Source of the DNA: Stegostoma tigrinum | Lineage: Eukaryota | Reading direction: 5' to 3' | DNA length: 64,000 nt | Assembly: GCF_030684315.1 (NCBI RefSeq) | Contig: NC_081382.1 | Span: 20,956,367 to 21,020,366 of the forward strand | Shown: positions 2,773-56,009 of the stretch, in pieces | Layout: each line of letters opens with the position of its first letter | Numbering within the stretch: the stretch's first letter is position 1 | Made by a program: the position numbers and the translations under genes | The notes under the pieces: model-generated | Told to the model about the DNA's origin: nothing | Database searches by the model: none | The model's input: only the letters and a program-made list of their open reading frames with translations

Positions 2773-4051
2773 TTGGATAGGATTTATAGTCACCTAGAAA
2801 AGAATAATTTGATTAGGGATAGTCAACACTGTTTTGTGAAGGGTAATTTATGCCTCACAAACCCTACTGAGTTCTTTGAGAAGGAGAACAAACAGGTAGT
2901 TTGGGGTAAATCGGTTGATGTGGTGTATATGGGTTTCAATAAAGTATTTGATAAGGTTCCCCACAGTAGGCTATTGCAGAAAATATGGAGGCACGGGATT
3001 GAGGGTGATTTAGTGGTTTGGATCAGAAATTGGCTACCTGTAAGAAGACAGAGGGTGGTGGTTGATGGGAAATGTTCATCCTGGAGTTCAGTTACTAGTG
3101 GTGTACTGCAAGGATCTGATTTGGGGCCACTGTTGTTTGTCATTTTTGTAAATAACCTGGATGAGAGCGTAGAAAGATGGGTTAGTAAATTTGCAGATGA
3201 CACGAAAGTCGGTGGCATTGTGGATTGTGAGGAAGGAAGTTGCAGCTTACAGAGGGACATAGATAAGCTGCAGAGCTGGGTTGAGAGGTGGCAAATGGAG
3301 TTTAATGCGAAAAAGTGCGAGGTGATTCACTTTGGAAGGAGTAGCAGGAATACAGAGTACTGGGCTAATGGTAAGATTCTTGGTGGTGTGGATGAGCTGA
3401 GAGATCTCAGTGTCCATGTGCATAGATCCCTGAAAGTTGCCACCCAGGTTGATACGGCTGTTAAGAAGGCATACGGTGTATTAGGTTTTATTGGTAGAGA
3501 GATTGAGCCATGAGGTCATGTTGCAGCTGTACAAAACACTGGTGCGGCCTCATTTGGAATATTGCGTACAGTTCTGGTCGCCGCATTATAGGAAGGATGT
3601 GGAAGCATTGCAAAGGAGATCCACCAGGATGTTGCCTGGTATGGAGGGAAGGTCTTATGAGAAAAGGCTGAGGGACTGAAGGCTGTTTTCATTCCAGAGA
3701 AGAAGTTTAAGAGGCGACTTAATAGAGACATACAAGATAGGGTAGGCGGTAAGAGACTTTTTCCTGGGATGTTGATGGCTAGCGCGAGGGAGCATAGCTT
3801 TAAATTGAGGGGTGATAGATATAGGGCAGATGTCAGAGTAGGTTCTTTACTCAGAGAGTAGTAAGGGCATTGAATGCACTGCCTGCAACAATAGGAGACT
3901 CGCCAACCTTAAGGGCATTTAAATGGTCATTGGACAAACATTTGGATGATAATGGAATAGTGTAAGTTGGATGGGCTTCAGATTGGTTTCACAGGTCGGC
4001 GCAACATCGAGGGCCGAAGGGCCTGTACTGTGCTGTAATGTTCTATGTTCT
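2773..4051 (+). mobile_element. 5'-truncated CR1 LINE (RT domain, 3' UTR, tail)
   Basis: Translations show RT motifs FDKVPH, GVLQGSDLGPLLF, KFADDTK, WQMEFNAKKC and LVRPHLEYCVQFWSP. Frameshift near 3500. Ends in a TGTTCTATGTTCT tail. Confidence 0.95.
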
Positions 4052-5379
4052 GATTTGGGGAAAAGACGTCCTGCATATAGTGTGGCGTTCAGACTGTACA
4101 TGGTTCTCCACTTGTAGTCTCACTACAGTTTTATACAGTTAGAATGCTAAAGATAAATAGTTCAGGCAAAAACCATGTCCCCACTCATAGGACAGCTGGA
4201 GAAGTGTATGAGTAGGAATGGAATTGAAGGGTACATTTAGGTTTGGACAAAGAGAGATAGAAGTCAGCCCATGCGGGGCCTAAATAGCTACTCACATGTG
4301 TTGGCTTAGATATTCTGTACCTGTGCTGTAAAATCTGTATAATTTCTCCTAATCTAGCACATAGTTTAATTTTTGTAGTTTCAAAAGCAAAATAATGTGA
4401 ATGGTGCAATATAGCTGTGCTGTGACAACATTTCCCGCAGAAAAATCTCCTGCTACTTCAAAGATGTTTATGCATATAAACAATTTGACAAGTGAGGTTT
4501 ATTCTAAACATGGAAACAAATCATTGCTTACAATTACTGATCAATGATGAATACACAAACAGGATTTGTAGCTTGACGTGATCTGAATTTCAGGGAACAA
4601 TGAAAATACCTAGAGCCTATTTTTTGATGTAGGGTAGTAGAAGATATAATATGAGATGTCTGGCCACAATAGACCATAAGAGCTGATGTGATGTCAATGT
4701 GGCTAAATGCATAGAATGATTTATGTTTTTGTTGGTAGCCTGGCGTGATTTTCAGTTTTCTTGTGGTTTGTTGGGTTTGGAAGGGTTAGTTGTCCTGCCA
4801 CAACTGGAATAGGAAAGACCTTCTTCCGTGAGCAGACAGAACAATAGAAAAATGGATTTAAAGCAATTATCAGTAGAATTTTCGCTCGGAGGTTTTCGGA
4901 ATTTACAACCCTCTGCGCATTTCAAAAATGGTCAGTAATGTCACAGCACTAAGTCTAGTAACTCACAGCTGTACGGCTAAGTAGATGGACAGGGGAATTA
5001 AGGTTTATTTTCCTGATGACAAAAGCACATCAGGATGAAGGGCCTTCTCCTGTGTTAGAAGTTCTTTTGATGATTTCATGTTAGCACCTTCCTGCAGATT
5101 GTGATAGATGTGTAGCTGTCACAGGAATTACTCTGAGAAGGTGTGACTGAGGAAAGTTGAGTACACTTTTGGCTTGACAGTGGAGGCTGTGCATGATCAC
5201 CAGTCAGGAGCCCATTTGTCACTGAAACAGACTTTGTTGTGGCCTTCTAATTCACATGCCACGTTAGCATCATGATTTCAGGGTTTTACAACCAATCAGA
5301 AAGGATGGGCAGAATCACAAATCAGTCTAAAGAAGGGGTGGCTGATCTGTGTGCTGGTTGCTGAAACAGCCGGATCAGA

Positions 5380-5950
5380 GGAATGGAAAGGGTATGTGTG
5401 GTAAACCTCTCCTCTTGTCTCAGTGCATGAGATTTCTGCTGTGTGATTCTGAGGGATTGACATGAGTTGCTCTATTCCACAGTGAGGAATGGAAGAAAAG
5501 GAATGTGGGATGAAGTGGCCCAAGTAGTTACCAGCAGGATTATGGGTCCCTCCAACCAGGTGACAGTGAACCATGAGGATCAAGGACCTCAAAAGGACAA
5601 GAAAAATGAATGGCATCACAGCCTCAGGGGGTCACGCTCTGACTTCCCCATTATTCTTCCCTCTTCCCATCGCCGTCATTAACTCTCCATCTCGTTCTCT
5701 CTCTCTCCCCCAACACCGTGCCCCCCACCCCCCCCCCCCCCCCGCATCTCTACCATATTTCTCACAATCACTTGTCACAAATGATCTTCCTACTCCTTTA
5801 CACAATCTATTATTCACACTCACAACTCACTGCTTTCTCTTCTTTGGGGAGAAAAGGTACAGAAATCCAGCAAGTGACAGAAAACAACAGGCTCTCATGA
5901 GGGACACCTTGATGGACACTGGACATGAATACCAGCATGGTCCATTGGGA
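5380..5950 (+). pseudogene. Decayed Myb/SANT-like (trihelix) ORF remnant of PIF/Harbinger accessory-gene type
   Basis: Broken frames read MWDEVAQVVTSRIMGP...RIKDLKR, resembling the W.EVA..V......RT..QC.KR..DL.R pattern. Heavily degraded, recognised by eye. Confidence 0.45.
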
Positions 5951-7232
5951 AGGAGGTCTTTCTCCAGAAAACCAGCACCAACTTGCAATGAGAACCTCAG
6001 CTTTGTGAGGTCCTGGTGCCCACATACATCGAGAGAACTGTTTCTCTGTTCATCAGCTCTGTTTTGGGCACTTCATTTCTTCACTCTTTGATCCAGATTT
6101 CGATCGGCTATGCTCTGTGGATAGGTATGTGGTGGGGAGGAGATGCCAGGTGTTGAAAGCACATTTGGAGATCTAGGCATGGCTGCAGCTGGCTAATTTC
6201 ACTGTTCAAAACCTTCCCAGCTGTCAGCTTCACTGAACAAATATAGCCCTCTGCCACCTTTTCTGGCTACTCCTGGTGAAAAAGCTTATGCTCCAGTTAT
6301 AGTTCATAACTCTGAGCTTAATCCTGAACAGATCCCTATTAATAAATCCCTATTAATTACTTTCCAGACATATCCACGGGTGTTCTCATTCTAACTAAGC
6401 GCCGCCCTGTGAAACTCAGAATTAGAAATGAACAAGTTGGGAGTCTCACCAAATGCCATTCCTTGGGCTTTTAAAACCCTGCCCAAACTTTGCCCCATCC
6501 CTAGCAGTTAAGACTACTCAATGTAGATTGTATCAGACATAATGGGAACTGCAGATGCTGGAGAATCCAAGTTAATAAAGTGTGAAGCTGGATGAACACA
6601 GCAGGCCCAGCAGCATCTCAGGAGCACAAAAGCTGACGTTTTGGGCCTAGACCATTCATCTGAGAGCGGGATGTGGTGAGGGTTCTGGAATAAATAGGGA
6701 GAGAGGGGGAGGCGGACCGAAGATGGAGAGAAAAGAAGATAGGTGGAGAGGAGAGTATAGGTGGGGAGGTAGGGAGGGCATAGGTCAGTCCAGGGAAGAC
6801 GGACAGGTCAAGGAGGTGGGATGAGGTTAGTAGGTAGGAAATGGAGGTGCGGCTTGGGGTAGGAGGAAGGGATGGGTGAGAGGAAGAACAGGTTAGGGAA
6901 GCAGAGACAGGCTGGGCTGGTTTTGGGATGCAGTGGGGGGAGGGGAAGAGCTGGGCTGGTTGTGTGGTGCAGTGGGGGGAGGGGAGATTTTGAAGCTGGT
7001 GAAGTCCACATTGATAGCATTGGGCTGCAGGGTTCCCAAGCGGAATATGAGTTGCTGTTCCTGCAACCTTCGGGTGGCATCATTGTGGCACTGCAGGAGG
7101 CCCATGATGGACATGTCATCTAAAGAATGGGAGGGGGAGTGGAAATGGTTCGCGACTGGGAGGTGCAGTTGTTTATTGCGAACCGAGCGAAGGTGTTCTG
7201 CAAAGCGGTCCCCAAGCCTCCGTTTGGTTTCC

Positions 7233-7894
7233 CAACGCATCATCCTCCGACACTTCTGCCATCTACAATCCGACCCCACCACCCAAGACATTTATCCATC
7301 CCCACCCTTGTCTGCTTTCCGGAGAGACCACTCTCTCCGTGACTCCCATGTTCGCTCCACGCTGCCCTCCGACCCCACCACACCCGGCACCTTGCCCTGC
7401 AACCGCAGGAAGTACTACACTTGCCCCCACACCTCCCCCCTCACCCCTAATACAGCCCCCAAGATGGCTTTCCATATTAAGCAGATGTTCACCTGCACAT
7501 CTGCCATTGTGGTATACTGTATCCATTGTACCCGGTGTGGCTTCCTCTACATTGAGGAAACCAAGCGGAGGCTTGGGGACCGCTTTGCAGAACACCTCCG
7601 CTCGGTTCGCAATAAACAACTGCACCTCCCAGTCGCGAACCATTTCAACTCCCCCTCCCATTCTTTAGATGGCATGTCCATCATGGGCCTCCTGCAGTGC
7701 CACAATGATGCCACCTGAAGGTTGCAAGAACAGCAACTCATATTCCGCTTGGGAACCCTGCAGCCCAATGGTATCAATGTGGACTTCACCAGCTTCAAAA
7801 TCTCCCCTTCCCCCACTGCATCCCAAAACCAGCCCAGTTCGTCCCCTCCACCTACTGCATCACACAACCAGCCCAGCCTGTCTCTGCCTCCCTA
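7233..7894 (+). pseudogene. PLE GIY-YIG endonuclease C-terminal coding remnant
   Basis: QRIILRHF...CNRRKYYTC...VVYCIHCTRCGFLYIEE...EHLRSV...ANHFNSPSHS, with a premature TGA at 7716-7718. Confidence 0.85.
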
Positions 7895-8125
7895 ACCTGT
7901 TCTTCCTCTCACCCATCCCTTCCTCCCACCCCAAGCCACACCTCCATTTCCTACCTATTAACCTCATCCCACCTCCTTGACCTGTCCGTCTTCCCTGGAC
8001 TGACCTATCCCCTCCCTACCTCCCCACCTATACTCTCCTCTCCACCTATCTTCTTTTCTCTCCATCTTCGGTCCGCCTCCCCCTCTCTCCCTATTTATTC
8101 CAGAACCCTCATCCCATCCCCCTCT

Positions 8126-8153
8126 CTGATGAAGGGTCTATGCCCGAAACATC
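8126..8153 (+). ncRNA. Minimal hammerhead-ribozyme motif (family A, mutated stem III)
   Basis: CTGATGA-A-GGGTCTATGCCC-GAAA-CATC, versus family consensus CTGATGAAGGGTCTAGGCCCGAAACGTC. Confidence 0.6.
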
Positions 8154-8544
8154 AGCTTTTGTGCTCCTGAGATGCTGCTTGGCCTGCTGTGTTCATCCAG
8201 CTCCACACTTTATTATCTTCAATGTAGATTGTGTTGATTTAACAATGAGCTGTACTATTTTGGTTGAACATCAATTTAAGTGAGTTTAATGAATGCCTTC
8301 TGTCATTGGATTTGGTGAATTTTCACATGCTGCCTTCCCTCTGTGCTCCATGTTCGTATCTGGCTTCAGCATGCCTCTCTCATTGAATCACGTGCCTACA
8401 GAGGCAATGGTGCTTCCTGCTGCCAGGATTATCCACCACAAATACTGTGGGGACCACATTTAAACACCAGCCGCACACCAGTCCGATTGCGACAAGCAAA
8501 GAATTGCCAATCCAAGTATGCTGCTTGACATTTGAAGCCATTTG

Positions 8545-9170
8545 AAGGAGGGGACTAAGAACAATAAGTTGGCAGCCCACTTGTAGACAGGAACCCGCAA
8601 GTACTTGTGGATGGGGATCCTTGTGGACAAGGAGGGCTAGCCTCTTCCCTCAGGACCATCAAAGGGAATCAGGCCACCAGACTCTGCCAGCATAGAATAA
8701 GATAGGAACCTGGGTCATGCTGGTTTGATGATCAAAAGAAATGTCAGTGATGCTGTAGGAAGGTCAATCCATTTCCTGTCTGCCTGGGAAATATTGCATC
8801 ATCTGTCTGCTACCTCATCTTCATTGTAATTCCATCAATGCACATAGCTCCCACCAAGGCTCATGGTCTACTACCTTTTAATGTTACCTCCAGCATCTTC
8901 CTTCTATAGCTCTCACTCACCTCATCCTCCCTAAATACAAAGCTCCCTACAGAGCTTCCTACATGCTCCCCCGGTACAGCATGCCATCTCTCCTGCTCCT
9001 ACACTCCCACAAGCAGCATCCCAGTCAGTTTCATCTCACTCAATTCCTTCATTTCTTCCATTGCAGGAGAAAATGTTGCATAATATGGGTAAAATAGCCA
9101 ATTTGGGCTAGCGAAGAAGCAAACATTTGTCTCCTCACCTCAAAAAGGAAGAAAATCCTTGAGTTAATGG
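8545..9170 (+). pseudogene. Decayed Myb/SANT-like ORF remnant (PIF/Harbinger accessory-gene type), possibly intron-containing
   Basis: Broken frames read RNPQVLVDG..RRASLFPQDHQR...TLPA...CRKVN. A pyrimidine tract plus TTGCAG|GAGAAAATG at ~9050-9075 looks like a splice acceptor. Confidence 0.45.
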
Positions 9171-9741
9171 AGTCGCAGAGTCGTAGAGCCCTACAGCAAG
9201 AAAACAGACCCTTCGGTTCAACCAGTCCAGGCCAACCATAATCCCAACTAAACTCGTCTTACCTGCCTGTGCTTAGTCCATCTCCATCCAAACATTTCTT
9301 ATTCATGTACTTAAACAGAAATTTATATGGAGATGCTGATACCTCTGTGAAGAATAAAGGGTCATTGTACTATGCGTTGCTGCTCACCTATTCGCACCAC
9401 TATGAAAGTATTCATAACTGGCACAACCTTCTAACCCTTTGAGCAATTTATTTCCTCTCTTCTCTTCTGCAGGCATCGTGGCACTCTCACAACTCCTCTG
9501 TTCTGAACAGACCAGTCCCACACCCATCAGCTCTTTCTTTATCCCTGAGGAAGAAATCCTAGATTTCCCCAGAGAATATCTCAACAAGGCTGCCTCCTGA
9601 ATCTTACAGCAGCTCAGCGACAGATACCCCACTCATCACTTGCTTAGACTAGACTCAGGACCACAGTCCAATGAGTTCACCACTGCCAACTGTCTGTGGC
9701 TGGTCAAGGGAGAAATGGTCCAGATCACTGACACTCAGGAC

Positions 9742-11124
9742 TTAGTTGGTAAAATTTTAGAATCCATTGTAAAGAATGAGATTTCTAAATTCTTGGAAGT
9801 GCAGTGTCAGATTAGAACAAGTCAACACAGATTTAGTAAGGGGAGGTCGTGCCTGACAAACCTGTTAGAATTCTTTGAAGAGGTAACAAGTATGTTAGAC
9901 CAGGGAAACCCAGTAGATATTATCTATCTAGACTTCCAAAAGGCCTTTGATGTGGTGCCTCACGGGAGGCTGCTGAGCAAGGTGAGGGCCCATGGTGTTC
10001 AAGGTGAGCTACTGGCTCAGATTGAGGATTGGCTGTCTGACAGGAGGCAGAGAGTTGGGATAAAAGGCTCTTTTTCGGAATGGCAACCGGTGACAAGTGG
10101 TGTCCCGCAGGGTTCAGTTTTGGGGCCACAGCTGTTCACCTTGTATATTAATGATCTGGATGAAGGGACTGGAGGCATTCTGGCGAAGTTTGCCGATGAC
10201 ACGAAGACAGGTGGACAGGCAGGTAGTACTGAGGAGGTGGAGAAGCTGTAGAAAGATTTAGACAGTTTAGGAGAGTGGTCCAGGAAATGGCTGATGAAAT
10301 TCAACGTGAGTAAATGTGAGGTTTTGCACTTTGGAAAAAAGAATACTCGCATGGACTATTTTCTAAATGGTGAGAAAATTCGCAAAGCAGAAGTACAAAG
10401 GAATCTGGGAGTGTTAGTTCAGGATTCTCTAAAGGTTAACTCGCAGGTAGAGTCCGTGATTAAGAAAGCGAATGTAATGTTGTTGTTTATCTCAAGAGGG
10501 TTGGAACATAAAAGCAGCGATGTGCTTTTGAGGCTTTATAAAGCTCTAGTTAGGCCCCATTTAGAATACAGTGTCCAATTTTGGGCCCCACACCTCAGGA
10601 AGGACATACTAGCCCTGGAGCGTGTCCAGCGGAAATTCACACGGATGATCCCTGGAATGGTAGGTTTAACGTATGATGAACGGCTAAGAATCCTGGGATT
10701 GTACTCATTAGAGTTTGGAAGGTTGAGGGGAGATCTAATAGAAACTTACAAGATAATGTATGGTTTAGAAGGGGTGGACGCTCGGATGTTGTTTCCGTTA
10801 GGTGGGGAGACTAGGACCCATGGGCGCAGCCTTAAAATTAGAGGGGGTAAATTTAAAACTGAAATGAGACGACATTTCTTCAGCCAGAGAGTGGTGGGCT
10901 TGTGGAATTCATTGCCACGGAGTGCAGTGGAGGCCAGGATGTTGGATGCCTTCAAGGCAGAGATCGACAAATTCTTGATCTCAGAAGGAATCAAGGGCTA
11001 CAGGGACAGTGCAGGGAAGTGGAGTTGAAATGTCCATCAGCCATGATTTAAATGGTGGACTGGACTTGATGGGCCGAATGGACTTACGTCCACTCCTATT
11101 TCTTATGGCCTTATGGACTTATGG
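9742..11124 (+). mobile_element. Young 5'-truncated CR1 LINE
   Basis: ORFs 9640-10251 and 10294-11028 are in the same frame, split by one TAG. Motifs [37 protein letters not shown] and WNSLP. Ends in a (CTTATGGA)n-like tail. Confidence 0.95.
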
Positions 11125-13920: not shown

Positions 13921-14353
13921 GGGCAACATAGAAATATATTAAATAGGAGCTGTAGAGCATGTGTCCCTTGAGCTTATTCCATCATGGCTGAGGTGTTTAT
14001 GCTTCAAATTCCACAATCACAACCACAATGTGTTTTGACTCTTCTACTTTCCATCTAGTTTATCACCAATAATCAAGAAACAATCTCAATACAGCCTACC
14101 AGCAATGGCATCCATTGTCAGTCTGTAATTGCCATGCGGCATTATCCAAATCTGAAAGCTGTGGACAAGGAGTCTGTGTAACCCTGTAACCACCGCAAGT
14201 TATCTAGTTAATAAATTTAACAGATAATGATATAATCCAGAGTGATAGCCCAATTTCAAAATGAGATCTTCACAAGAAACTCATTTCAGAGAGAAAATTT
14301 TAGATGAAAGGACAAAACAATCAACACTCAAGAAACAGATAGGATCAAAAATA

Positions 14354-14538
14354 ATAAAATGTGAGGCTGGATGAACACAGCAGGCCAAGCAGCATCTCAG
14401 GAGCACAAAAGCTGACGTTTCGGGCCTAGACCCTTCATCAGAGGGTTGTGCTCCTGAGATGCTGCTTGGTTTGCTGTGTTCATCCAGCCTCACATTTTAT
14501 TATCTTGGAATTCTCCAGCATCTGCAGTTCCCATTATC
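14354..14538. mobile_element. Mini PLE family A fold-back
   Basis: Inverted copies of the family A 3' end. Exact 14-bp TSD TAGGATCAAAAATA at 14340-14353 and 14539-14552. Confidence 0.9.
14414..14441 (-). ncRNA. Minimal hammerhead-ribozyme motif (family A consensus)
   Basis: Minus strand reads CTGATGA-A-GGGT(CTAG)GCCC-GAAA-CG-TC: CUGAUGA and GAAA core, short stem II, palindromic ACGU stem III, GUC triplet. Confidence 0.75.
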
Positions 14539-14818
14539 TAGGATCAAAAATAGACAGGATCTTATCGAAAGAAAGTGGAAAAAGTAACTTTCATATATCA
14601 TAGCATTTGGCTAATACAGGCTTGAGGAAAATATTGCAATTGCTAAGAGGAAGGTCGAACTCAAAAGAATTTTTTGCTATTTGGAAGAGTCTAATAGTGA
14701 CAGCAATCTATTGATTGAAAATTTTGATTCAGTTTTACTTCCTCACTTTGCTGATTTCACTGCAGCACAATCAAACCGATGGATTTGGTTTCTAACCAAC
14801 AAGATTAAAAATTGAGAG

Positions 14819-17055: not shown

Positions 17056-17139
17056 CTGAAGGACACTGCCATGAGCCTGCAGATATGTCCTGGAGCTGAG
17101 ATGACTGACCTCCAACAGCTACAACATTCTTCTTGTGAG

Positions 17140-18590
17140 AACAAAGTGTGGAGCTGGATGAACACAGCAGGCCAAGCAGCGTCTTAGGAGCACAAAAGCT
17201 GCCGTTTCGGGTCTAGACCCTTCATTAGAAAAGGGGGATGGGGAGAGGATTCTGAAAACAATACGGAGAGAGGGGGAGGCGGACCGAAAATTGATGGAGG
17301 AGAAGATAGGTGGAGAGAAGAGTATAGGTGGGGAGGTAGGAAGGGGATAGGTCAGTCCGGGGAGGACGGACAGGTCAAATGGGCAGGATGAGGTTAGTAG
17401 GTAGGAAATGGAGGAGCGGCTTGAGGTGGGAGGAGGGGATAGGTGAGAAGAAGAACAGGTTAGGGAGGCGGGGACGAGCTACGCTGGTTTTGGGATGCAG
17501 TGGGGGAAGGGGAGATTTTGAAGCTGGTGAAATCCACATTGATACCATTGGGCTGCAGGGTTCCCAAGTGGAATATGAGTTGCTGTTCCCGAAATCTACG
17601 GGTGGCATCATTATGGCACTGCAGAAGGCCCATGATGGACACGTCGTCTAAGGAATGGGAGGGGGAGTTAAAATGGTTCGCGACTGGGAGGTGCAGTTGT
17701 TTATTGCGAACCGAGCGGAGGTGTTCTGCAAGGCAGTCCCCAAACCTCCGCTTTGTTTCCCCAATGTAGAGGTAGCCACACCGGGTACAACGGATGCATC
17801 TGCAAAGCGGTCCCCAAGCCTCTGCTTGGTTTCCCCGATGTAGAGGAAGCCACAATGGGTACAGCTTATGCACCTGTTGTGGCTTCTTCTACATTGGGGA
17901 AACCAAGTGGAGGCTTGGGGACCGCTTTGCAGAACACCTCCGCTCGGTTCGCAATAAACAACTGCACGTCCCAGTTGCGACCCATTTAAACTCCCCCTCC
18001 CATTCCTTAGACGACATGTCCATCATGGCCCTCCTGCAGTGCCACAATGATGCCACTCAAAGGTTGCAGGAACAGCAACTCATATTCCACTTGGGAACCC
18101 TGCAGCCGAATGGGATCAGTGTGGACTTCACAAGCTTCAAAATCTCCCCTCCTCCCACTGCATTGCAAAACCAGCCCAGCTCGTCCCCTCCCCCCGCTGC
18201 ATTGCAAAACCAGCCCAGCTCATCCCCCCTTCCCTAACCTGTTCTTCCTCTCACCTATCCCCTCCTCTCACCTTAAGCCGCACCTCCATTTCCTACCTAC
18301 TAACCTCATCCCACCCCCCTGACCTGTCCATCCTCTCCGGATGACCTATCCCCTCCCTACCTCTCCACCTATACTCTCCTCTCCACCTATTTTCTCCCCC
18401 ATCCATTTTCGGTCCGGCTCCCATTCTCTCCCTATTTAGTTCAGAATCTTCACCCCATCCCCCTTTTCTGATGAAGGGTCTAGGCCGGAAACGTCAGCTT
18501 TTGTGCTCCTAAGATACTGCTTGTGTTCATCCAGCCCCACACTTCGTTATCTTGGATTCTCCAGCTTCTGCAGTTCCCATTATCTCTGAC
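17140..18590. mobile_element. PLE family A fold-back with rearranged centre
   Basis: Minus arm 17140-~17865 and plus arm ~17870-18590, both with YIGETK/EHLRSV/LGTLQPNG sequence. Exact 16-bp TSD ACATTCTTCTTGTGAG at 17124-17139 and 18591-18606. Confidence 0.92.
18468..18495 (+). ncRNA. Minimal hammerhead-ribozyme motif (family A)
   Basis: CTGATGAAGGGTCTAGGCCGGAAACGTC, with one stem II mismatch. Confidence 0.6.
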
Positions 18591-19514
18591 ACATTCTTCT
18601 TGTGAGTCAGGTGTGAGTCCAACCAGGGGAGAATTTGTCCCCAATACCCATTGATTCCAGCTTTCCTCAAAAATATTGCATTAGTGATCAGGGAATGAGG
18701 TAACACTAAAAACACAAGGTAATGTGCAGGGCACGGAATAATTTTCTGTTCACATTTATGTTGATTTTGCCTTTGTATACTATCATTGCTTAAAGGGTAT
18801 AATTCCATATCAGGATTTAAAATATTTTCAAATGGTTAATTAAAGTGAAAAATTATTCTTTAAACTTATTGGGCTTAGGTTAATACCTGCATCTATAAGT
18901 GGGTGCTTACCAGAGGAAATTGTGCAATGACGCACTTGCTATAGGTCATTTGAACATAGGTCAGTAAAAAAGTTGGATAATCACCACTATTGTTTCTGCA
19001 CTTGGTGGTGGGGGGCTGTTGAAAGACACAGAAACAGAAAGCTGCTTTGCCAAGATGTTATCCATGTGCTGCCTAAGGCATATCCTTGGTAAAGTGCCCA
19101 GAAGCTAAGAGCAGAAACCATTACTGATATTGTATTGAAATAATTGAGGAAGTGCATAATCTTTGGGAAAAATGGCTATTATTTTTCCTTGAATTGTTTC
19201 AGACAGAACGTTTCTGTGCTGGCAGAAATTTGTGACGTGCCGATTACTGCTTTTCCATTTTCACTTGAGATATTTCTAAAACAAAGCCATTTGGGAAGAG
19301 ACACACTAAGTTCTATCACAGATGAAGAAAGGACATTAAAATGCTTAAACTGACATGGCTAACTTAGCTGCTATGGGAGAAGCTTTACTGAAAACAAAGG
19401 CTTATCAATTATTTCACATAATTTGACATTTGTTAATTCCTGCTCCAAAAATAGTTTAGATTTTTAATAATTTCCTTGGAGGTGATTTAAATTAAATGTT
19501 AATGGATTGAGAGG

Positions 19515-24373: not shown

Positions 24374-24611
24374 AATTGTATCAGAAATAATGGGAACTGC
24401 AGATGCTGGAGAATCCAAGACAACAAAGTGTGAAGCTGGATGAACACAGCAGGCCAAGCAGCATCTCAGGAGCACAAAAGCTGATGTTTCAGGCCTAGAC
24501 CCTTCATCAGAGAGCTCTCTGATGAAGGGTCTAGGCCCGAAACGTCAGCTTTTGTTGTCCTGAGATGCTGCTTGGCCTGCTGTGTTCATCCAGCTTCACA
24601 CTTTGTTGTCT
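24374..24611. mobile_element. Mini PLE family A palindrome with no central loop
   Basis: Axis at GAG|CTC (24514/24515) between back-to-back hammerhead motifs. Exact 15-bp TSD TAGTTACATTTGGAA at 24359-24373 and 24612-24626. Confidence 0.92.
24519..24546 (+). ncRNA. Minimal hammerhead-ribozyme motif (family A consensus)
   Basis: CTGATGAAGGGTCTAGGCCCGAAACGTC, exact consensus. Confidence 0.75.
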
Positions 24612-25668
24612 TAGTTACATTTGGAAGCAGGTTCCTCCTTGAAAGTAGTTTCTGACAAAAATAGCTAATATTTCATTCTCCAACAGCAAAACCATTTAGT
24701 TGAAAATACGTTGATTCTAACTTACGGAGGTTAAATTTAACAAAATACCATTTTAATCATGTATAAATGCCAGGCTGGATTTAATACATTAGCAGATAAT
24801 ATTTGAAATGCAATTTGCAATTCATATCTAAGGACAGTTGCAACATGATGAATAAACATCATAACTTTATTGTCAAAGTCAAATAAAGGTTTAAAAATTT
24901 GTGATTCACGTATATTTTATATGATCTTTTGCATCCTCTGCAATGTTCTATGCATCACAATTCACAATAAAATAAAAGAATTAATGTGTGTAGAATTAAG
25001 TGGAATGGATTGCACAGAAGCAGGCAATCAGCTAATGCCCTCAGTGCTTACATTCTATATGAATTTCATTCCACTCCTCTTCATCCGACTAACAACATAA
25101 CACTATGTGGTTTGAAAAGGGTAACAGGGAGATGTCAAGGGAATGGCACCAGTTGAGATGTTCAATAGGACAGTCAATGCTATGCTGTAACTATTCAGTG
25201 TTTATTTGATCCCATTGGATTTGGATTCACTGTGGTTAATAAGAAGGCATGCTATCTTCTTATGGCTTGATTTTGATGGACAACTTGGTTCGTTGTTCCA
25301 GCTGAATCTCGTGCTTTTCTTGTCAGTTGTGATCATGCTGTGTTTCAACTGAATCAAATCGATCGGTGCAGTCTATTTCTCTCCAAAGTGAAGGAGGATT
25401 ACAGGCAGCCAGACGCACATTCATAAAACATGAAAATCTGGAGGTTAATTTGAGTCAGCTGACATCATCATGACGAAGGATAAAGTCATGACTAGTTGTT
25501 ATTGCTTCGTGGAACTATGGACTTGGATGCTTGCTAATTGTAATTCAGCATTGTTACTTTTGGTCATAAATTGTGGTTCTTAATTGTCTTCCAGCATTGA
25601 AAACTATGCCAGCCTGTTGGATACAAAACAGATGTTTATCCATTAAAACAATTTTTTCAAATCTTATT

Positions 25669-25868
25669 GAGATAATGGGAACTGCAGATGCTGGAGAATC
25701 CAAGATAACAAAGTGTGGAGCTGGATGAACACAGCAGGCTAAGCAGCATCTTAGGAGCATCTTAGCTTTTTTCTGATGAAGAGTCTAGGCCTGAAACGTC
25801 AGCTTTTGTGCTCCTAAAATGCTGCTTGGCCTGCTGTGTTCATCCAGCTCCACACTTTGTTATCTTAC
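25669..25868. mobile_element. Mini PLE family A fold-back
   Basis: Inverted arms, hammerhead motif at 25773-25800, degenerate TSD TTCAAATCTTATTGA / TTCAAATTCTACTGA. Confidence 0.85.
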
Positions 25869-26009
25869 TTCAAATTCTACTGATGATCAGCTGCATGGCT
25901 TTTTAACAGGAATTGCATTCTTCGGTCTCATCCTTAAACCTTTGATAATGCCTGTCAAGTCTTAATAGCACTGAGTAACTGAAACTGCAGTCAAATGGAA
26001 ACCTTGACT

Positions 26010-26066
26010 AAAACGAAGTACTGTGAATGCTAGTGAACTGAAACAAACAGCAGAAATTGCTGGAGA
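26010..26066 (-). mobile_element. Old PLE family B-related end (appears to continue at 27612)
   Basis: ...CAGAAATTGCTGGAGA joins AAACTCAGCAGGTCT at 27613, as in intact family B copies (AAATTGCTGGAAAAGCTCAGCAGGTCT). Confidence 0.5.
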
Positions 26067-26467
26067 TAATTTCCCACAGCTAACCCACCCTAACCCGCAC
26101 ATCCCTGTGCACTATGGGTAATTTCCCACAGCTAACCCACCCTAACCCGCACATCCCTGTGCACTATGGGTAATTCCCCACGGCTAACCCACCCTAACCC
26201 GCACATCCCTGTGCACTATGGGTAATTTCCCACAGCTAACCCACCCTAACCCGCACATCCCTGTGCACTATGGGTAATTTCCCACAGCTAACCCACCCTA
26301 ACCCCCACATCCCTGTGCACTATGGGTAATTCCCCACGGCTAACCCACCCTAACCCGCACATCCCTGTGCACTATGGGTAATTCCCCATGGCTAACCCAC
26401 CCTAACCCGCACATCCCTGTGCACTATGGGTAATTTCCCACAGCTAACCCACCCTAACCTGCACATC
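26067..26467. repeat. 52-bp minisatellite (~7.7 units) expanded inside an HE1-like SINE
   Basis: Unit TAATTTCCCACAGCTAACCCACCCTAACCCGCACATCCCTGTGCACTATGGG starts at 26067, 26119, 26171, 26223, 26275, 26327, 26379 and 26431, then runs directly into SINE body to ~26570. Confidence 0.95.
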
Positions 26468-26574
26468 TTTGAACTGTGGGACGAAACCAGAGCACCCAGA
26501 GGAACCCCACGCAGACATGGGTCCGGAGGGGTGGGGGTTGGGCGCGGGAGAAGATGCAAACTCCACACTGTTCT

Positions 26575-31169: not shown

Positions 31170-32450
31170 CTATCTTACCTCCACCCCTGCCTTAAACTAT
31201 CATCCATATGCCTATCTAATTGCTACTTAAATGCCCCTAATGAAGCCGACTTCACTACCCTCTCTGGCAATGCATTCCACACCCCTACCACTCTCTGAGT
31301 AAAGAACCTACCTCTGATGTCTCCCCGATATCTGCCTCCACTTACTTTAAAACTATGTCCCCTCATAATAGCTACCTCCGTCCTAAGAAAGAGTCTCTGG
31401 CTGTCCACTCTATCTGATAATTTTGTACACCTCTATCAAGTCACGTCTCATCCTTCATCATTCTAAAGAGAAAAGCCCTAGCTCTTTCAACCTTTCCTCA
31501 TAAGACCTTCCCTCCATTTCAGGCAACGTCCTGGTAAATCTCCTCTGCACCTTTTCCAACATTTCCACATCTTTCTTGTAATGAGGCGACCAGAACTGGA
31601 CACAATACTCCAGATGTGGCTGAACCAGGCTTTTGTACAGCTGGAGCATAACTTCACTGCTCTTGAACTCAATCCCTCTATTAATGAAAGCTAACACACC
31701 ATATGCCTTCTTAACAACTCTATCCACCTGGGTGGCAGCTTTCAGGGAACTGTGGATATGAACTCCAAGACCCCTCTACTCCCCCACACTGCCAAGAATC
31801 TTCCTGTTAACTCTGTGTTCTGCTTCCAAGTTTATCCTTCCAAAATGAATCACCTCGCACTTTTCAGCATTGAACTCCATCTGTCACTTCTCAGCCCAGC
31901 TCTGCGTCCTATCAATGTCCCTATGTAACCAACAGCCCTCTGCACTGTCTACAATTCGACCCACCTTCGTATCGTCTGCAAAATTACTAATCCACCCTTC
32001 CACTCCTTCATCCAAATCATTTACAAAAATCACAAATAGGAGGACCCAGAACAGATCCTTGTGGTACACGACTCATAACTGAACACCATGTGGAATATTT
32101 TCCATCCACTACCACCCTTTGTCTTCTAAGGGTCAGCCAATTCTGAATCCAATCTGCCACATTCCCCGCTATCCCATGCCTCCTTACCTTCTGCATGAAC
32201 CTACCATGGGGAACTTTATCAAATGCCTTAGTTAAATCCATGTATATCACATCCACTCTCCACCTTCATCCACATGTTTGGTCACCACTTCAACGAATTC
32301 GATAAGTTTTGTAAGGCATGATCTACCCGTCACAAATCCAAAATGAGTATCACGAATCAAACTGTGCCTTTCCAAGTGATCATTAATCCTAAGTCTCAGA
32401 GCCCCTTTTCCCAATAATTTGCCCACCACTGACATAAGATTAACTGGCCT
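31170..32450 (-). mobile_element. 5'-truncated CR1 LINE (frameshifted)
   Basis: Minus ORFs give [42 protein letters not shown] and WNALP. Confidence 0.95.
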
Positions 32451-33350: not shown

Positions 33351-34574
33351 TACCTTCTTTTCAGTCTCTGGATCTAACCTCTGTCTTGCTATTTATGAAC
33401 ATGGAGGGTATAAGGGCCATGGAGAGGAGGAGCAGGTGGGGCTAGAGGGCCTTAAATCTTAAAATTCACCCGTTATGACATTCCAGAGAACAAAAGCAAG
33501 CCTATTAACCAGCTCACCTCCACACTTGAGCATCACCATGCCTGTCTGCACTCTATCTGTACCCGGCACCTCTCTTCCCCGAGATCATGAGATTTGAGAC
33601 CATTTGTCTGAGTTTTATCTGATGGGTTTGAAACTATGTGACTCTTCCAGCACTGTCTCATTACGGAACATCTGGCCATCAGTCAAAGGACGAGATTTCA
33701 CAATGTGAATGATTTTAAGGGGACAGAAGATGGAGGCACTTCAAGAAGGAGTTGCAAAGCATTGTTACTAGGCAGTTTAAAGAGACCCATCAATGATAAG
33801 GCAAAATTGAGGACATGCGCAAGGAGCCAGAACATAGCATCCAGTGAGAATATTTTCCGTGGTTTTTTGAGAAATAATCAATTACTTTGAAAAGCATTTG
33901 ACTCTGAGTTCTAGGTTTTTGTTAAACTAACTAACTAACTCAATGTAAAATGAGTTTTACATTTTACCTAATGTAAAACATCCAAGCACAAGTTGAGCCT
34001 TGACATATCACTGAAAAGAGATGAGAACTACATTTTACTTTGCCACATATTAGTTGTGAGAAATCATTTGTAACAACATGCTAATTATGCAATAATTAAT
34101 GCCACATGAATTATTGCAGTCATGCATTAAGTCAAGACAATCAATTTAGATTTGTTTTGAAACTACGTAGAAATTTTAAAGTTGAGGATTTCTTTGTGAA
34201 AAGCTCTGTGCAGCTGTGTTTCAGACTAATCAGTAACCATATTGATGCTACTTTGTTCAGGGATTAGCATTTGGAAGTCACCATTAACAGACTTTGGTTA
34301 CCCACTGTACAGCACGATGTAAATTGATCTTTTGGGCCCATTGCTGCACAGACAGTTTTGCTTTGGGTTCGTGACAAACACCTGAATGGAAACCTCTAAG
34401 CCAATTTGCCAGACATTGCCTTTTACAATTAAATTACACAAATACAGTGCACACAGGCAGCACGTGGTTACATATATTTGAGGGTAGGAAATGAAAAGCT
34501 GGCAGAATGATTTCTTTTACCAAAACAATGCAGCACTCCTGATTCTGCAAAGTATCTTCGCTGCTTGGTGGTCT

Positions 34575-34779
34575 GCTACACCTAGAGTGCACTATCACAG
34601 CTACACTTTGAGTGCACTATCACAGCTACACCTAGAGTGCACTATCACAGCTACACCTAGAGTGCACTATCACAGCTACACCTAGAGTGCACTATCACAG
34701 CTACACCTAGAGTGCACTATCACAGCTACACCTAGAGTGCACTATCACAGCTACACTTTGAGTGCACTATCACAGCTAC
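34575..34779. repeat. 25-bp minisatellite (~8.2 units)
   Basis: Unit GCTACACCTAGAGTGCACTATCACA. Units 2 and 8 share the variant ...CACTTTGAG... Confidence 0.95.
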
Positions 34780-34805
34780 TCTGAGGGCTGCCTGTTTAAA
34801 AATTT

Positions 34806-34956
34806 GATGTGGCTTTGGACTGAGGTGGGCAAAGTCAGAAGTCACATGACACCAAGTGATAGTCCAAAGGGTTTATTTGAAATCACAACTTTTGGAGCAT
34901 AGCCATTTCAAATAAACCTGTAGGACTATAACCTGGTATCGTGTGACTTCTGAGTT
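34806..34956. mobile_element. PLE-like family C fold-back
   Basis: AGTCAGAAGTCACATGACACC...TTTATTTGAAAT is inverted to ATTTCAAATAAACC...GTGTGACTTCTGA. Left arm is longer. TGTTTAAAA is duplicated on both flanks. Confidence 0.7.
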
Positions 34957-45254: not shown

Positions 45255-46210
45255 AATATGCAGGTGCAGAATTAGGTTATTGGCCCATTGATTCTGCTCT
45301 GTCATTCAACTATATGTTTCTCAACTCCATTCTTCTGTCTTTTCCCAATAAATCTTTAGCCCAAATTCAGCAGTATATCTCTGCTTTTGTGTTCTAGCTC
45401 TCTTGAAATGAATGCTAACATTGCCTTCTTAACTGCTAACTGAACTTGGATTCTTAGGTCAGAGATAATGGGAACTGCAGATGCTGGAGAATCCGAGATA
45501 ACAAGGTGTGAAGCTGGATGAACACAGCAGGCCAAACAGCATCTTAGGAGCACAAAAGCTGATGTTTCGGGTCTAATACAACTGAGACAAAATCACAATT
45601 TCATCAGGTTTGATGAAGGGTCTAGACCCAAAACGTCAGCTTTTGTGCTCCTAAGATGCTGCTTGGCCTGCTGTGTTCATCCAGCTTCACACTTTGTTAT
45701 CTCGGATTCCTAGGTCGCTTTGTTCTTCAGATTTCTAAAGCTTTTCCCCATTTTGAATATAGACTACACCTCTGTTCTTCCCACTAAAGTGCACAGCCTC
45801 ACACTTTCCCACATTGTATTCCATCTGCCACTTCATTGCCCTCTGTCCTAGATTGTCCGAGTCCTTCTGCAGCCTCCCAACTTCATCAACATGACTTGAT
45901 CCTCCACTTTGTGTTATTTGCAAATTTAGCAACAATGCCCTTAGTTCCTTTGACCAGGTCATTAATTTGTAACATGAATAGTTGTGTTCCCAACACAGAC
46001 CTTGCAGAACTCCCCTAGTCACAGGCTACCATCCTGAAAACAAAAACTCTCATCCCCGCTCTCTGCAAACTGTCAGTCAGCCAATCCTTGATCTATACCA
46101 GTAGCTCGCCTCGAACATCATGGACTCTTTTCTTATTTAGCAGCCTCCTGAGTGGCACCTTGTCAAACGCCTTCTGGAAATCCAGATAAATTTGTTTCAC
46201 TGGCTCACTG
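45255..46210 (-). mobile_element. CR1 LINE fragment interrupted by a mini PLE
   Basis: Minus ORFs give KWQMEYNVGKCEAVHF and MLAFISRELE. Confidence 0.85.
45461..45700. mobile_element. Mini PLE family A fold-back with captured genomic DNA at its centre
   Basis: Inverted arms. Flank duplication CTTGGATTCTTAGGTC / CTCGGATTCCTAGGTC. Centre 45572-45597 matches 46915-46940. Confidence 0.9.
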
Positions 46211-47624: not shown

Positions 47625-47837
47625 AAGAACTGCGGATGCTGTAAATCAGGAACGAAAGCAAAATTGCTGGAAAAGCTCAGCAGGTCTGGCAGCATCTGTG
47701 AAAGAAAAAACAGAGTCAAAGTTTCAGGCCTGGTGATCCTTCCTCAGAACTAGTCCGGACACGAAACGTTAACTCTGTTTTTTCCTTCACAGATGCTGCC
47801 GGACCTGCTGAACTTTTCCAGCAATTTTGTTTTTGTT
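47625..47837. mobile_element. Mini PLE family B fold-back
   Basis: AAAGAACTGCGGATGCTG...CCTTCCTCAGAAC followed by inverted GAAACGTTAACTC...CAGATGCTGCC...TTTTGTT. Weak ~10-bp TSD. Confidence 0.85.
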
Positions 47838-52092: not shown

Positions 52093-53175
52093 CAATGTTC
52101 TATTGTTCAACAATGGCATCGGTCAGATAAACTAAATTGCTTATTCAAAATATCAACATTCTACCAGGTCTAATAATAAAACATGATGGATAATCAACCA
52201 TGCTTCAAATTCTGATTCTGTGTTGACAATGAATAGAGCAGTGTTGAATAAATATTGGCATTCGAGGACAAGAAGTAAAATAGCACAAAACCTTGGTGCA
52301 AAAGTGTAAGGCATACCGTTGACTGACACGTATTTCTTCATTAAGTATGAAAATGGGTGTTTGCACTTACTTAGCTGTGATCCATGCGCATAAAGTCCAA
52401 TGTGCTCAAAAAACAGTCACTGGGGCATGTTTACGTTTCAACATAACCCATCTTAATCCATTCAGAAAAACACAAAATAAAGATCTGGTCTCCATGAAGA
52501 GAAAAACCATTCATAAAATTCAAGCAAAATCCACAAGAATTACCTTGATTTCTCTGCTGCAACTGAAAACTAGATTGCAATGTGAAGGTACAATCTGAAA
52601 AATGCAGTTGGGGTATATCCAAATTCAAGAGTTGCAGGTATGGCCAGTTATAGGGCAATGAGTTTAGTCCAGTGGAAGATTCAATGGTCAGAGAACGCCA
52701 ATGAAATTTGGCATATTGTTGCCATGTGAGTCAATATTTTCAATATTCTTCAACCATCTTTATTGATTTGTGTCCAGATTGCATGTTTTCCTGGATACAG
52801 ATGTGAAGGAAACACCAGGACCCTAAATCTACATTTATAATAAAAACGCGCCTATGTAAATATATAGTGCTATAAAGAACACCCACTTTTCAGTAAGAAC
52901 CAAAAGAACTGAGGATGCTGTAAATCAGGAACAAAAACAAAGTTGCCGGAAAAGCTCAGCAGGTCTGGCAGCATCTATGGAGGAGAAAAAAGAGTTAACG
53001 TTTCAGAGTCGGTTCTGAGGAAGGGTTACCGGACCCAAAACGTTAACTCTTTTTTTCTCCTCCACAGATGCTGCCAGACCTGCTGAGCTTTTCCAGCAAC
53101 TTAGTTTTTGTGATAATAAAATGTGAGGCTGGATGAACACAGCAGGCCAAGCAGCATCTCAGGAGCACAAAAGCT

Positions 53176-53203
53176 GACGTTTCGGGCCTAGACCCTTCAT
53201 CAG
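53176..53203 (-). ncRNA. Minimal hammerhead-ribozyme motif (family A consensus)
   Basis: Minus strand reads CTGATGAAGGGTCTAGGCCCGAAACGTC. Confidence 0.75.
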
Positions 53204-53427
53204 AGAGGGGGATGGGGGGAGGGAACTGGAATAAATAGGGAGAGAGGGGGAGGCGGACCGAAGATGGAGAGTAAAGAAGATAGGTGGAGAGGGTGTAGGT
53301 GGGGAGGTAGGGAGGGGATCGGTCAGTCCAGGGAAGACGGACAGGTCAAGGAGGTGGGATGAGGTTAGTAGGTAGCTGGGGGTGCGGCTTGGGGTGGGAG
53401 GAAGGGATGGGTGAGAGGAAGAACCGG

Positions 53428-54145
53428 TTAGGGAGGCAGAGACAGGTTGGACTGGTTTTGGGATGCAGTGGGTGGGGGGGAAGAGCTGGGCTGGTAGTGT
53501 GGTGCAGTGGGGGGAGGGGATGAACTGGGCTGGTTTAGGGATGCAGTGGGGGAAGGGGAGATTTTGAAACTGGTGAAGTCCACATTGATACCATATGGCT
53601 GCAGGGTTCCCAGGCGGAATATGAGTTGCTGTTCCTGCAACCTTCGGGTGGCATCATTGTGGCAGTGCAGGAGGCCCATGATGGACATGTCATCAAGAGA
53701 ATGGGAGGGGGAGTGGAAATGGTTTGCGACTGGGAGGTGCAGTTGTTTGTTGCGAACTGAGCGGAGGTGTTCTGCAAAGCGGTCCCCAAGCCTCCGCTTG
53801 GTTTCCCCAATGTAGAGAAAGCCGCACCGGGTACAGTGGATGCAGTATACCACATTGGCAGATGTGCAGGTGAACCTCTGCTTAATGTGGAATGTCATCT
53901 TGGGGCCTGGGATGGGGGTGAGGGAGGAGGTGTGGGGACAAGTGTAGCATTTTCTGCGGTTGCAGGGGAAGGTGCCGGGTGTGGTGGGGTTGGAGGGCAG
54001 TGTGGAGCGAACGAGGGAGTCATGGAGAGAGTGGTCTCTCCGGAAAGCAGACAGGGGTGGGGATGGAAAAATGTCTTGGGTGGTGGGGTCGGATTGTAAA
54101 TGGCGGAAGTGTCGGAGGATAATGCGTTGTATCCGGAGGTTGGTA
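53428..54145 (-). pseudogene. Uninterrupted 3' part of PLE ORF: Cys-rich linker plus GIY-YIG endonuclease (Neptune-like)
   Basis: NLRIQRIILRHF...CNRRKCYTC...VVYCIHCTRCGFLYIGETKRRLGDRFAEH...ANHF..PSHS...RRLQEQQLIFRLGTLQPYGIN. 5'-truncated with no RT. Confidence 0.9.
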
Positions 54146-54726
54146 GCTCCACACTGCCCTCCAACCCCACCACACCCGGCACCTTCCCCTGCAACCGCAG
54201 AAAATGCTACACTTGTCCCCACACCTCCTCCCTCACCCCCATCCCAGGCCCCAAGATGACATTCCACATTAAGCAGAGGTTCACCTGCACATCTGCCAAT
54301 GTGGTATACTGCATCCACTGTACCCGGTGCGGCTTTCTCTACATTGGGGAAACCAAGCGGAGGCTTGGGGACCGCTTTGCAGAACACCTCCGCTCAGTTC
54401 GCAACAAACAACTGCACCTCCCAGTCGCAAACCATTTCCACTCCCCCTCCCATTCTCTTGATGACATGTCCATCATGGGCCTCCTGCACTGCCACAATGA
54501 TGCCACCCGAAGGTTGCAGGAACAGCAACTCATATTCCGCCTGGGAACCCTGCAGCCATATGGTATCAATGTGGACTTCACCAGTTTCAAAATCTCCCCT
54601 TCCCCCACTGCATCCCTAAACCAGCCCAGTTCATCCCCTCCCCCCACTGCACCACACTACCAGCCCAGCTCTTCCCCCCCACCCACTGCATCCCAAAACC
54701 AGTCCAACCTGTCTCTGCCTCCCTAA
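54146..54726 (+). pseudogene. Mirror copy of the PLE GIY-YIG coding region
   Basis: Translation is identical to the minus-strand arm from STLPSNPTTPG onward. Confidence 0.9.
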
Positions 54727-54950
54727 CCGGTTCTTCCTCTCACCCATCCCTTCCTCCCACCCCAAGCCGCACCCCCAGCTACCTACTAACCTCATCCCAC
54801 CTCCTTGACCTGTCCGTCTTCCCTGGACTGACCGATCCCCTCCCTACCTCCCCACCTACACCCTCTCCACCTATCTTCTTTACTCTCCATCTTCGGTCCG
54901 CCTCCCCCTCTCTCCCTATTTATTCCAGTTCCCTCCCCCCATCCCCCTCT

Positions 54951-54978
54951 CTGATGAAGGGTCTAGGCCCGAAACGTC
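54951..54978 (+). ncRNA. Minimal hammerhead-ribozyme motif (family A consensus)
   Basis: CTGATGAAGGGTCTAGGCCCGAAACGTC. Confidence 0.75.
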
Positions 54979-55364
54979 AGCTTTTGTGCTCCTGAGATGC
55001 TGCTTGGCCTGCTGTGTTCATCCAGCCTCACATTTTATTATCTTGGAATCTCCAGCATCTGCAGTTCCCATTATCTCTGAACTTAGTTTTTGTTCCCACT
55101 TTTCAGTAGATGAGCTACAGCACCATCACTAGTAACAGTGTGCAATTATAGCCCAGTATATTTACGCAGGCAATTGCCAGTCTAAATGTGGACAAAGGAA
55201 TTTCTTGTGCAATTATATAGAATGAATGTTTTTAAAATGAGAATTGATTTACGTTTGTGTTCTCCAGTCTATCTCTCACCTAATCCCATTTCACCAGAAG
55301 GCTACACTTGTTCTTGACTCTCTCTTGTGAAATACCACAGAAACCTGATAATACATATTTTATA

Positions 55365-55591
55365 GATAACAAAGTGTGGAGCTGGATGAACATAGCAGGC
55401 CAAGCAGCATCTCAGGAGCACAAAAGCTGACCTTTTGGGCCTAGACCCTTCATCAGAGTTCTCTCTGATGAAGGGTCTAGGCCCAAAACATCAGCTTTTG
55501 TGCTCCTGAGATGCTGCTTGGCCTGCTGTGTTCATCCAGCTTCACACTTTGTTATCTTGGATTCTCCAGCATCTGCAGTTCCCATTATCAC
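55365..55591. mobile_element. Mini PLE family A palindrome
   Basis: Centre CCTTCATCAGAG-TT-CTCTCTGATGAAGG. TSD TAATACATATTTTATA / TAATATGTATTTTATA, where CA versus TG fits decay of one CpG. Confidence 0.9.
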
Positions 55592-56009
55592 TAATATGTA
55601 TTTTATATATAGTTGCGCATGTGCATTTGAATTAAAACAATCCTGGTCCCAGTTGCTTGAAAATTCTGACATTTTGCCCACGTGTTAAAGTTTACGTGAT
55701 TTTGCGAAGTAATTCTATTCCAATCCTGGCAACTTAATTTTTGTTGATATGTCATCCTTTAATAAAACAAAATTGTAACTGTACCAGAAAACTTCTTTTG
55801 TATGAATAAAGACAGCCTTACTGATTTAATGCACATTTTATTTTACGTCAAATTTACTTACTGTACATGTTTGTTTTCATGTTTGACTTTGGAACAGCAG
55901 CAGTCACATTTCCCCAAAACCTCTGTGAAGGCCAAAAGGAATGATTGAATACACTAATGGATTCTAGATCTCTCATTTAATCAGACATACAGTGGGATTA
56001 TGTTCTTGC

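Follow-up and report, generated by a model that had tools for sequence, protein, structure and literature searches.

Fold-back insertions of a Penelope-like element in Stegostoma tigrinum, and their possible origin from two reverse-transcription starts

The insertion at 6532-8218 of the window (the whole stretch of 64,000 nucleotides of Stegostoma tigrinum contig NC_081382.1 that was analysed) is a real Penelope-like fold-back, ordinary in form. With a probability of roughly 0.6, fold-backs of this family form when reverse transcription begins twice at a staggered cut, once on either strand and usually on one RNA, and two family members contributed to the arms of the window element. Evidence that the starts are two and staggered, usually with one source, is a more useful result than the single element.

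Structure and family of the insertion

Two exact copies of a 14-bp TSD (TCAATGTAGATTGT; 6518..6531 and 8219..8232, plus strand) bound the insert, confirming that one exact TSD encloses both arms, as stated in the preliminary description. The left (short) arm (6532..7232, minus strand) is 5'-truncated and contains the end of the GIY-YIG domain, the 3' region and the end of the pLTR. It alone carries a 3' tail of ~37 nt (6532..6568, minus strand), which in full-length copies lies between the upstream pLTR and the ORF, as seen in L175 and L328, two tandem copies. The right (long) arm (7233..8218, plus strand) is also 5'-truncated, and has no tail; 323 nt of 5' sequence specific to it (7233..7555, plus strand) cover the end of the RT region, a zinc-finger-like linker and the start of GIY-YIG. 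The arms are placed head to head, are 95% alike over an overlap of 664 nt, and meet at a junction with ~1 nt of overlap; with the 323 nt confined to the right arm and the 37-nt tail to the left (shorter) arm, each has sequence that its partner lacks. A motif scan found a hammerhead-like minimal core (CTGATGA...GAAA) at 8126..8149 (plus strand), and both boxes are broken in the left-arm copy. An Rfam search returned no family at the gathering score. Public contigs from two samples confirmed the left junction (6300-6555), and gave only fragments inside the repeat.

Judged from its sequence features, the window element is an EN+ Penelope-like element (PLE), and its motifs, by which the clade was named, would make it Neptune-type. 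It represents a 3' end only; the single ORF with RT followed by a C-terminal GIY-YIG was found in another family copy (L181): an open frame of 1,079 aa matching PF00078 (E 1.8e-5) and PF01541 (E 2.5e-4), with both scores slightly below the Pfam cut-offs. The 161-aa piece of the window element itself had no Pfam match at E 0.001. A CCHH motif with two Cys between GIY and YIG was read by eye in the right arm (VVYCIHCTRCGFLYI, then RFAEH and VANH). The linker zinc finger upstream of GIY-YIG (CX2-5CxxC) appears as CNRRKCYTC in the young element at 53112, and has lost one Cys in the right arm relative to the family reference L181. The definitions of both motifs follow the relevant sections of PMC8557442, where the linker feature is also attributed to Nematis. 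The hallmarks of an EN+ PLE unit were present: a pLTR/partial tandem, an inverted 5'-truncated copy, a tail of 30-40 bp and a TSD. One locus of the genome (L328:4549-8870) holds a whole canonical unit, consisting of an inverted tailed arm, a partial pLTR with tail and a full-length copy within one TSD.

Genome arms sorted into old, middle and young classes. Over 545 sites, the left and right arms differed from the class majorities at 11 and 10 (middle), 30 and 29 (young), and 30 and 25 sites (old), respectively. Both arms therefore belong to the middle class. The preliminary description had noted HFHS in the left arm and HFNS in the right, which is correct and due to one base (7141/7647), and had likened the arms to the elements at 53112 and 17140, respectively. 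Membership in these two subfamilies did not hold: left and right arms differed at 31 and 30 sites from the 53112 arm, and at 60 and 55 or 60 and 56 sites from the two 17140 arms.

The window contains further repeats. The young fold-back at 53076-55090 has arms 100% identical over 897 nt, a 137-nt spacer, a tail on the right (shorter) arm and a 14-bp TSD, while the old fold-back at 17120-18610 holds an extra element piece of ~65 nt at its junction (17799-17863), as if the template had been switched where the arms were joined; a similar junction insert occurs at another locus (L330). Mini fold-backs lie at 14341-14539, 24375-24616, 25669-25870, 45459-45709 and 55339-55596; their arms measure roughly 60-100 nt and end around the hammerhead motif, and the scored ones have one tail and their own TSD. 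Tandem arrays occupy 25963-26571 (52-nt period, adjoining a mini fold-back) and 34550-34824 (25-nt period). A second short palindromic repeat family (47651-47837 and 52931-53111) is about 81-83% self-complementary, with one copy abutting the 53112 element, and another dispersed repeat is present in opposite orientations at 2778-3951 and 31198-32391 (73% alike over 1.2 kb).

Tail placement and two probable primings

Fold-backs were collected from 1,997,352 bases of the same genome, giving 570 arms and 143 fold-backs, 119 of which were TSD-verified. The sample is non-random, most loci being the best matches to arms of the three long elements of the window or of two young relatives. The TSD filter permitted layouts with a tail on both arms or on neither, and the 24 excluded fold-backs without a verified TSD comprised 18 with one tail, six with none and none with two. 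TSD length was 14-16 bp in 80 of 109 cases. A TSD also enclosed 31 of 152 non-fold-back arms, 16 of them tailed; such single-arm insertions count against the mechanism proposed below.

Exactly one arm was tailed in 118 of the 119 verified fold-backs, neither arm in one, and both arms in none. When both arms were at least 150 nt (n = 84), the tailed arm exceeded its partner at the 5' end in 34 and fell short of it in 35, while the two ended within 15 nt of each other in 15; 20,000 shuffles gave a mean of 1.85 and a maximum of 8 pairs within 15 nt. A tail always on the longer or always on the shorter arm, as considered for halves of a tandem transcript or for snap-back, was rejected by the near-equal 34 and 35. 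When it is the shorter arm that has the tail, each arm includes sequence absent from its partner and cannot have been copied from it as DNA, which implies that both were copied from RNA. Together with the single tail and its independence of arm length, this points to two primings. Overlapping arms, neither of which contains the other, and the one-sided tail thus support the earlier proposal that a single cut had both its strands used for reverse transcription, in a manner unlike L1 twin priming. One tail each time and shared stop points would be expected from one RNA with two staggered starts, while independent choice of starts on two free RNAs would be expected to give many two-tail and no-tail insertions. 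The equal-length arms could alternatively originate from later loss of a hairpin loop.

In the proposed mechanism, the enzyme would nick the two strands 14-16 nt apart; copying from one nick would begin where the pLTR ends, and from the other ~36 nt further 3', which would give the tail. The second start would re-copy the same RNA, displacing the first cDNA, and the two cDNA ends would then be joined, in most cases with at best slight microhomology. A more specific version is tentative: overlapping twin priming, in which a complex of two RTs starts at positions 36 nt apart from opposite nicks, thereby producing inverted arm and one-sided tail together in a single step, takes up a second RNA in at least a fifth of events and recombines between sources as in retroviruses, with the window element as such a product.

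One young fold-back (L183:4295-8998), with a perfect 17-bp TSD and the tail on the short arm, bears a mark common to its arms: 36 sense A>G changes, identical in both arms, while T>C changes are absent; the arms show four differences over 1,480 sites. No A>G changes of this kind occur where the long arm is unpaired, and the RT and EN frames are open in both arms. A 5' G precedes 1 of the 36 edited positions, compared with 35 of 194 A sites. ADAR has a 5' neighbour preference, and the changes are ADAR-like, fitting editing that became fixed in the genome. The simplest reading suggests that a single edited RNA served as template for both arms; conversion between the arms, or a source copy that was edited but is missing from the assembly, could also give this result. 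No other copy with this A>G pattern was found among 40 scored of 9,119 candidates. Single-arm A>G differences at three loci (L299, L313 and L330) were rejected as proof of two RNAs owing to search bias, most matches to the L183 query having A>G at an L183 site, and two A>G changes in L328 were an alignment artefact at the junction.

Sources of the two arms

Differing repeat units had been taken as a sign of two templates. Their order was as described (left arm: unit 2, spacer 2, unit 3; right arm: unit 1, spacer 1, unit 2), and their size was 39 bp (13 aa), not ~42 bp: motifs 2 and 3, spaced 39 bp, remain in the left arm, where unit 1 is lost (6919..6970, minus strand), and motifs 1 and 2, with the same spacing, in the right arm, where unit 3 is lost (7818..7869, plus strand). 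Among 69 middle-class arms at loci found with repeat-free queries, 54 had three units and 13 had two. The two-unit forms had varied breakpoints and backgrounds, and their partners often had three units with matching flanking alleles, by which unit number was ruled out as a lineage marker. Only 1 of 101 young arms had two units, most of these arms having been found with three-unit queries. Since unit loss recurs by slippage, the unit pattern is no evidence of two templates, and each arm of the window element probably lost one 39-bp unit in this way.

For lineage markers, allele frequencies were taken from arms unselected at each site, using 14 non-CpG markers of the overlap and three of the repeat region. 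The arms of the window element, which was picked for looking discordant, differed at 4 of the 17, in phase: 7141/7647, 6967/7860, 6608/8180 and 6585/8203 (left/right). The left arm has the newer alleles and the right the older: polarisation against the old class was feasible at three of the sites, where the majority allele of that class is in the right arm and the alternative in the left, and the fourth is linked likewise. Each of the four pairwise linkage tables tested was significant. Mutation is expected to yield 0.21 differences in 17 (P 7e-5; 0.002 with a doubled rate and all sites as transitions). The four differences span 592 nt, nearly the whole overlap, in one direction. An AU test with 40 other arms did not reject sisterhood of the two arms (p 0.159), and the exact 13-marker haplotype of either arm occurred in none of 112 other arms. 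A second RNA present at insertion may have brought sequence of a second family member into one arm, at slightly below even odds; later entry of this sequence by ectopic conversion is possible, and private mutation alone, or mutation or error, is a doubtful source of the differences.

Family-wide, arms mostly shared one source, with a real minority excess of discordance. At markers outside the search-query span, discordance was 10/253 in young pairs (5 of 25 elements; 0.5 expected from mutation and 81.2 from random pairing) and 20/139 in middle pairs (8 of 13 elements; 2.4 and 48.2 expected, respectively). It is this distance below random pairing that indicates a common source for most arms, two templates being a minority outcome in which a second RNA and later ectopic conversion were not told apart by these data. 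Two RNAs from one active locus would match one RNA at every lineage marker. Discordance within the query span (young 24/342, middle 50/373) was set aside because the search favours the rare alleles of the query, and a first tally (130 against 27.8 expected, 66 pairs) was inflated by the same bias. A tree of 308 arms, the check proposed in the preliminary description, placed 16 of 47 pairs as sisters, with many others on unsupported branches. The proposal of two different templates is thus plausible for the window element, on grounds other than those first given: four in-phase markers differ, although the AU test does not reject sisterhood. As a family rule it is not supported, given arm concordance and L183.

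Discordance climbed with arm divergence, from 8/265 at <0.3% to 39/255 at >3% (Spearman 0.49, all markers), which fits later conversion; its presence in very young pairs (L373 at 0.07% and L319 at 0.24% non-marker divergence) fits a second RNA. Where young pairs are discordant, their arms often have rare source alleles in common and disagree in one patch (L319, L373 and L113). At L319:2516-3911, the right arm has the youngest haplotype 3' and an older young-class tract 5' (reference 2350-2545), with the same rare 3' alleles as the left arm. L129, which was found by a young query and has a perfect 17-bp TSD, combines a middle-class left arm with a right arm whose 5' part is of the middle class and whose 3' part is of the young class. 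In 16 multi-marker pairs (selected and unselected markers), discordant sites clustered as in unrelated arms (mean quantile 0.48), and 24 mosaic lineage haplotypes were counted among 64 arms.

Among the alternatives, one template followed by ectopic conversion from other copies, during break repair at the palindrome, is possible as an account of these differences. In addition to the rise with divergence, which at unselected markers is from 4% in young to 14% in middle pairs, it draws on the patch-like form of the differences and on thousands of potential donors (4,990-11,110 candidates). It is opposed by the discordance already present in the very young L373 and L319, by the one-directional 592-nt span in the window element, and by old arms without common middle alleles (3487G 0/52, 3241C 1/44), although these are more diverged from the donors.

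The use of two RNAs as a rule, by an enzyme dimer holding one RNA per strand, is rather unlikely. Arms would then be alike since a germ cell usually expresses one locus, and the window element would have caught two sources. Such a rule agrees with discordance beyond mutation in both the young and middle classes at unselected markers (5/25 and 8/13 elements), with the unrelated-like spread in the 16 multi-marker pairs, with the class mixture of L129 inside a perfect TSD, and with the protein dimer predicted for the anole enzyme (PMC11167929). On the other hand, the single tail in 118 of 119 fold-backs and the excess of equal-length arms are easier to obtain with one RNA, the 36 edits of L183 are in both arms, the young discordant pairs share rare alleles and differ in patches, and mini fold-backs were discordant at 9 of 151 markers, against 3.7 expected.

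One template with private mutation and slippage, the marker matches being due to chance or hot spots, is unlikely. In its favour, of 21 substitutions outside the repeat, 17 are found in unselected arms to be rare or CpG-type, units are lost repeatedly (13/69 middle-class arms), and the AU p value of 0.159 is compatible with it; however, it faces the P of 7e-5 for 4 of 17 markers, the stability of these sites in other classes (2918C in 97/97 young; 3487G in 0/52 old) and the family-wide surplus at unselected markers.

Self-priming snap-back, with the second arm copied from the first cDNA or from an antisense template as for rotifer elements, is improbable. It was proposed from junction palindromes in the passages of PMC3846280 on these units, and near-symmetric identical arms do exist (L190); the arms at 53112 are identical as well, but are separated by the 137-nt spacer. 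In 35 of 84 fold-backs, including the window element, the shorter arm is tailed and the longer has extra 5' sequence, and the window junction overlaps by only ~1 nt. These tail-on-short-arm cases refute snap-back as the general route, while the near-symmetric subset might still use it. An assembly or polishing error that placed common family alleles into one arm is very improbable: the differences do favour family-common alleles and public contigs back the left junction (6300-6555) only, but the youngest pairs, which should be the easiest to misplace, differ least (0 in L100:6839, L101 and L190).

Comparison with known systems

The fold-back structure is already known, and the value of this study lies in the family-level arm test. 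In the sections of Craig et al. 2021 (PMC8557442) and Arkhipova et al. 2013 (PMC3846280) on EN+ PLEs, the unit has an inverted copy, a one-sided tail and an enclosing TSD. The present family shares with the canonical units, as outlined there, an inverted 5'-truncated copy at the 5' end in head-to-head arrangement, a 30-40 bp tail at one end, a TSD round the whole unit, a putative hammerhead motif in the pLTR, and RT followed by GIY-YIG. These accounts present the tail as optional or often at one end, whereas here it was on one arm in 118 of 119 fold-backs, independently of length. The same passages explain the tail by endonuclease resolution and take self-priming as the cause of the inversion, and PMC8557442 describes the origin of inverted units and tails as still undefined. 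Our counts argue against the published self-priming as a general route.

According to the main results of Frangieh et al. 2024 (PMC11167929), the anole Poseidon enzyme PAc cuts both strands in vitro and extends them from a pair of adjacent internal start sites that delimit the tail, and a dimer is predicted; no start-site difference between the strands was found there, and hammerhead mutants had no effect on in vitro insertion of the anole element. Cutting and extension of both strands, start sites bounding the tail and a predicted dimer are the points in common with the window family. PAc differs in belonging to the Poseidon clade, which has no linker zinc finger, and the inverted unit and the number of RNAs lie outside the scope of that paper as far as its main results go. 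Minimal hammerheads of PLEs were proposed to act as dimers (PMC4209133). RNA pairing mediated by the hammerhead, as in the preliminary description, was unsupported, with no link here between dimers and template choice.

In openly readable main texts, no arm-versus-arm template test or overlapping twin-priming model for PLEs was found; subscription papers or supplements may hold one. In the parts bearing on this point, PMC10191854 and bioRxiv 10.64898/2026.07.22.740005 cite L1 twin priming and add nothing further. For the existing in vitro system, our results predict one tail per insertion, a length-independent tail, and a stop point and an editing mark that are shared. If insertion draws on a second RNA, PLEs would have a built-in recombination route; if later conversion acts instead, arm divergence is useless for dating insertions.

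Retroviral copy-choice between two RNAs would yield patchwork arms and mosaic haplotypes. The mosaic haplotypes found here (24 among 64 arms) resemble this outcome, whereas linkage by a particle or dimer is unshown here, and conversion explains the patches equally well. In L1 twin priming, reportedly described by Ostertag and Kazazian in 2001, the second primer is said to act ahead of the first, giving non-overlapping parts and one 3' end. The likeness lies in both target strands priming cDNA, likely on one RNA, and in an inversion inside one TSD; in contrast to L1, the arms of the window element have an overlap of 664 nt, the 3' end is present in each, and there is no poly(A).
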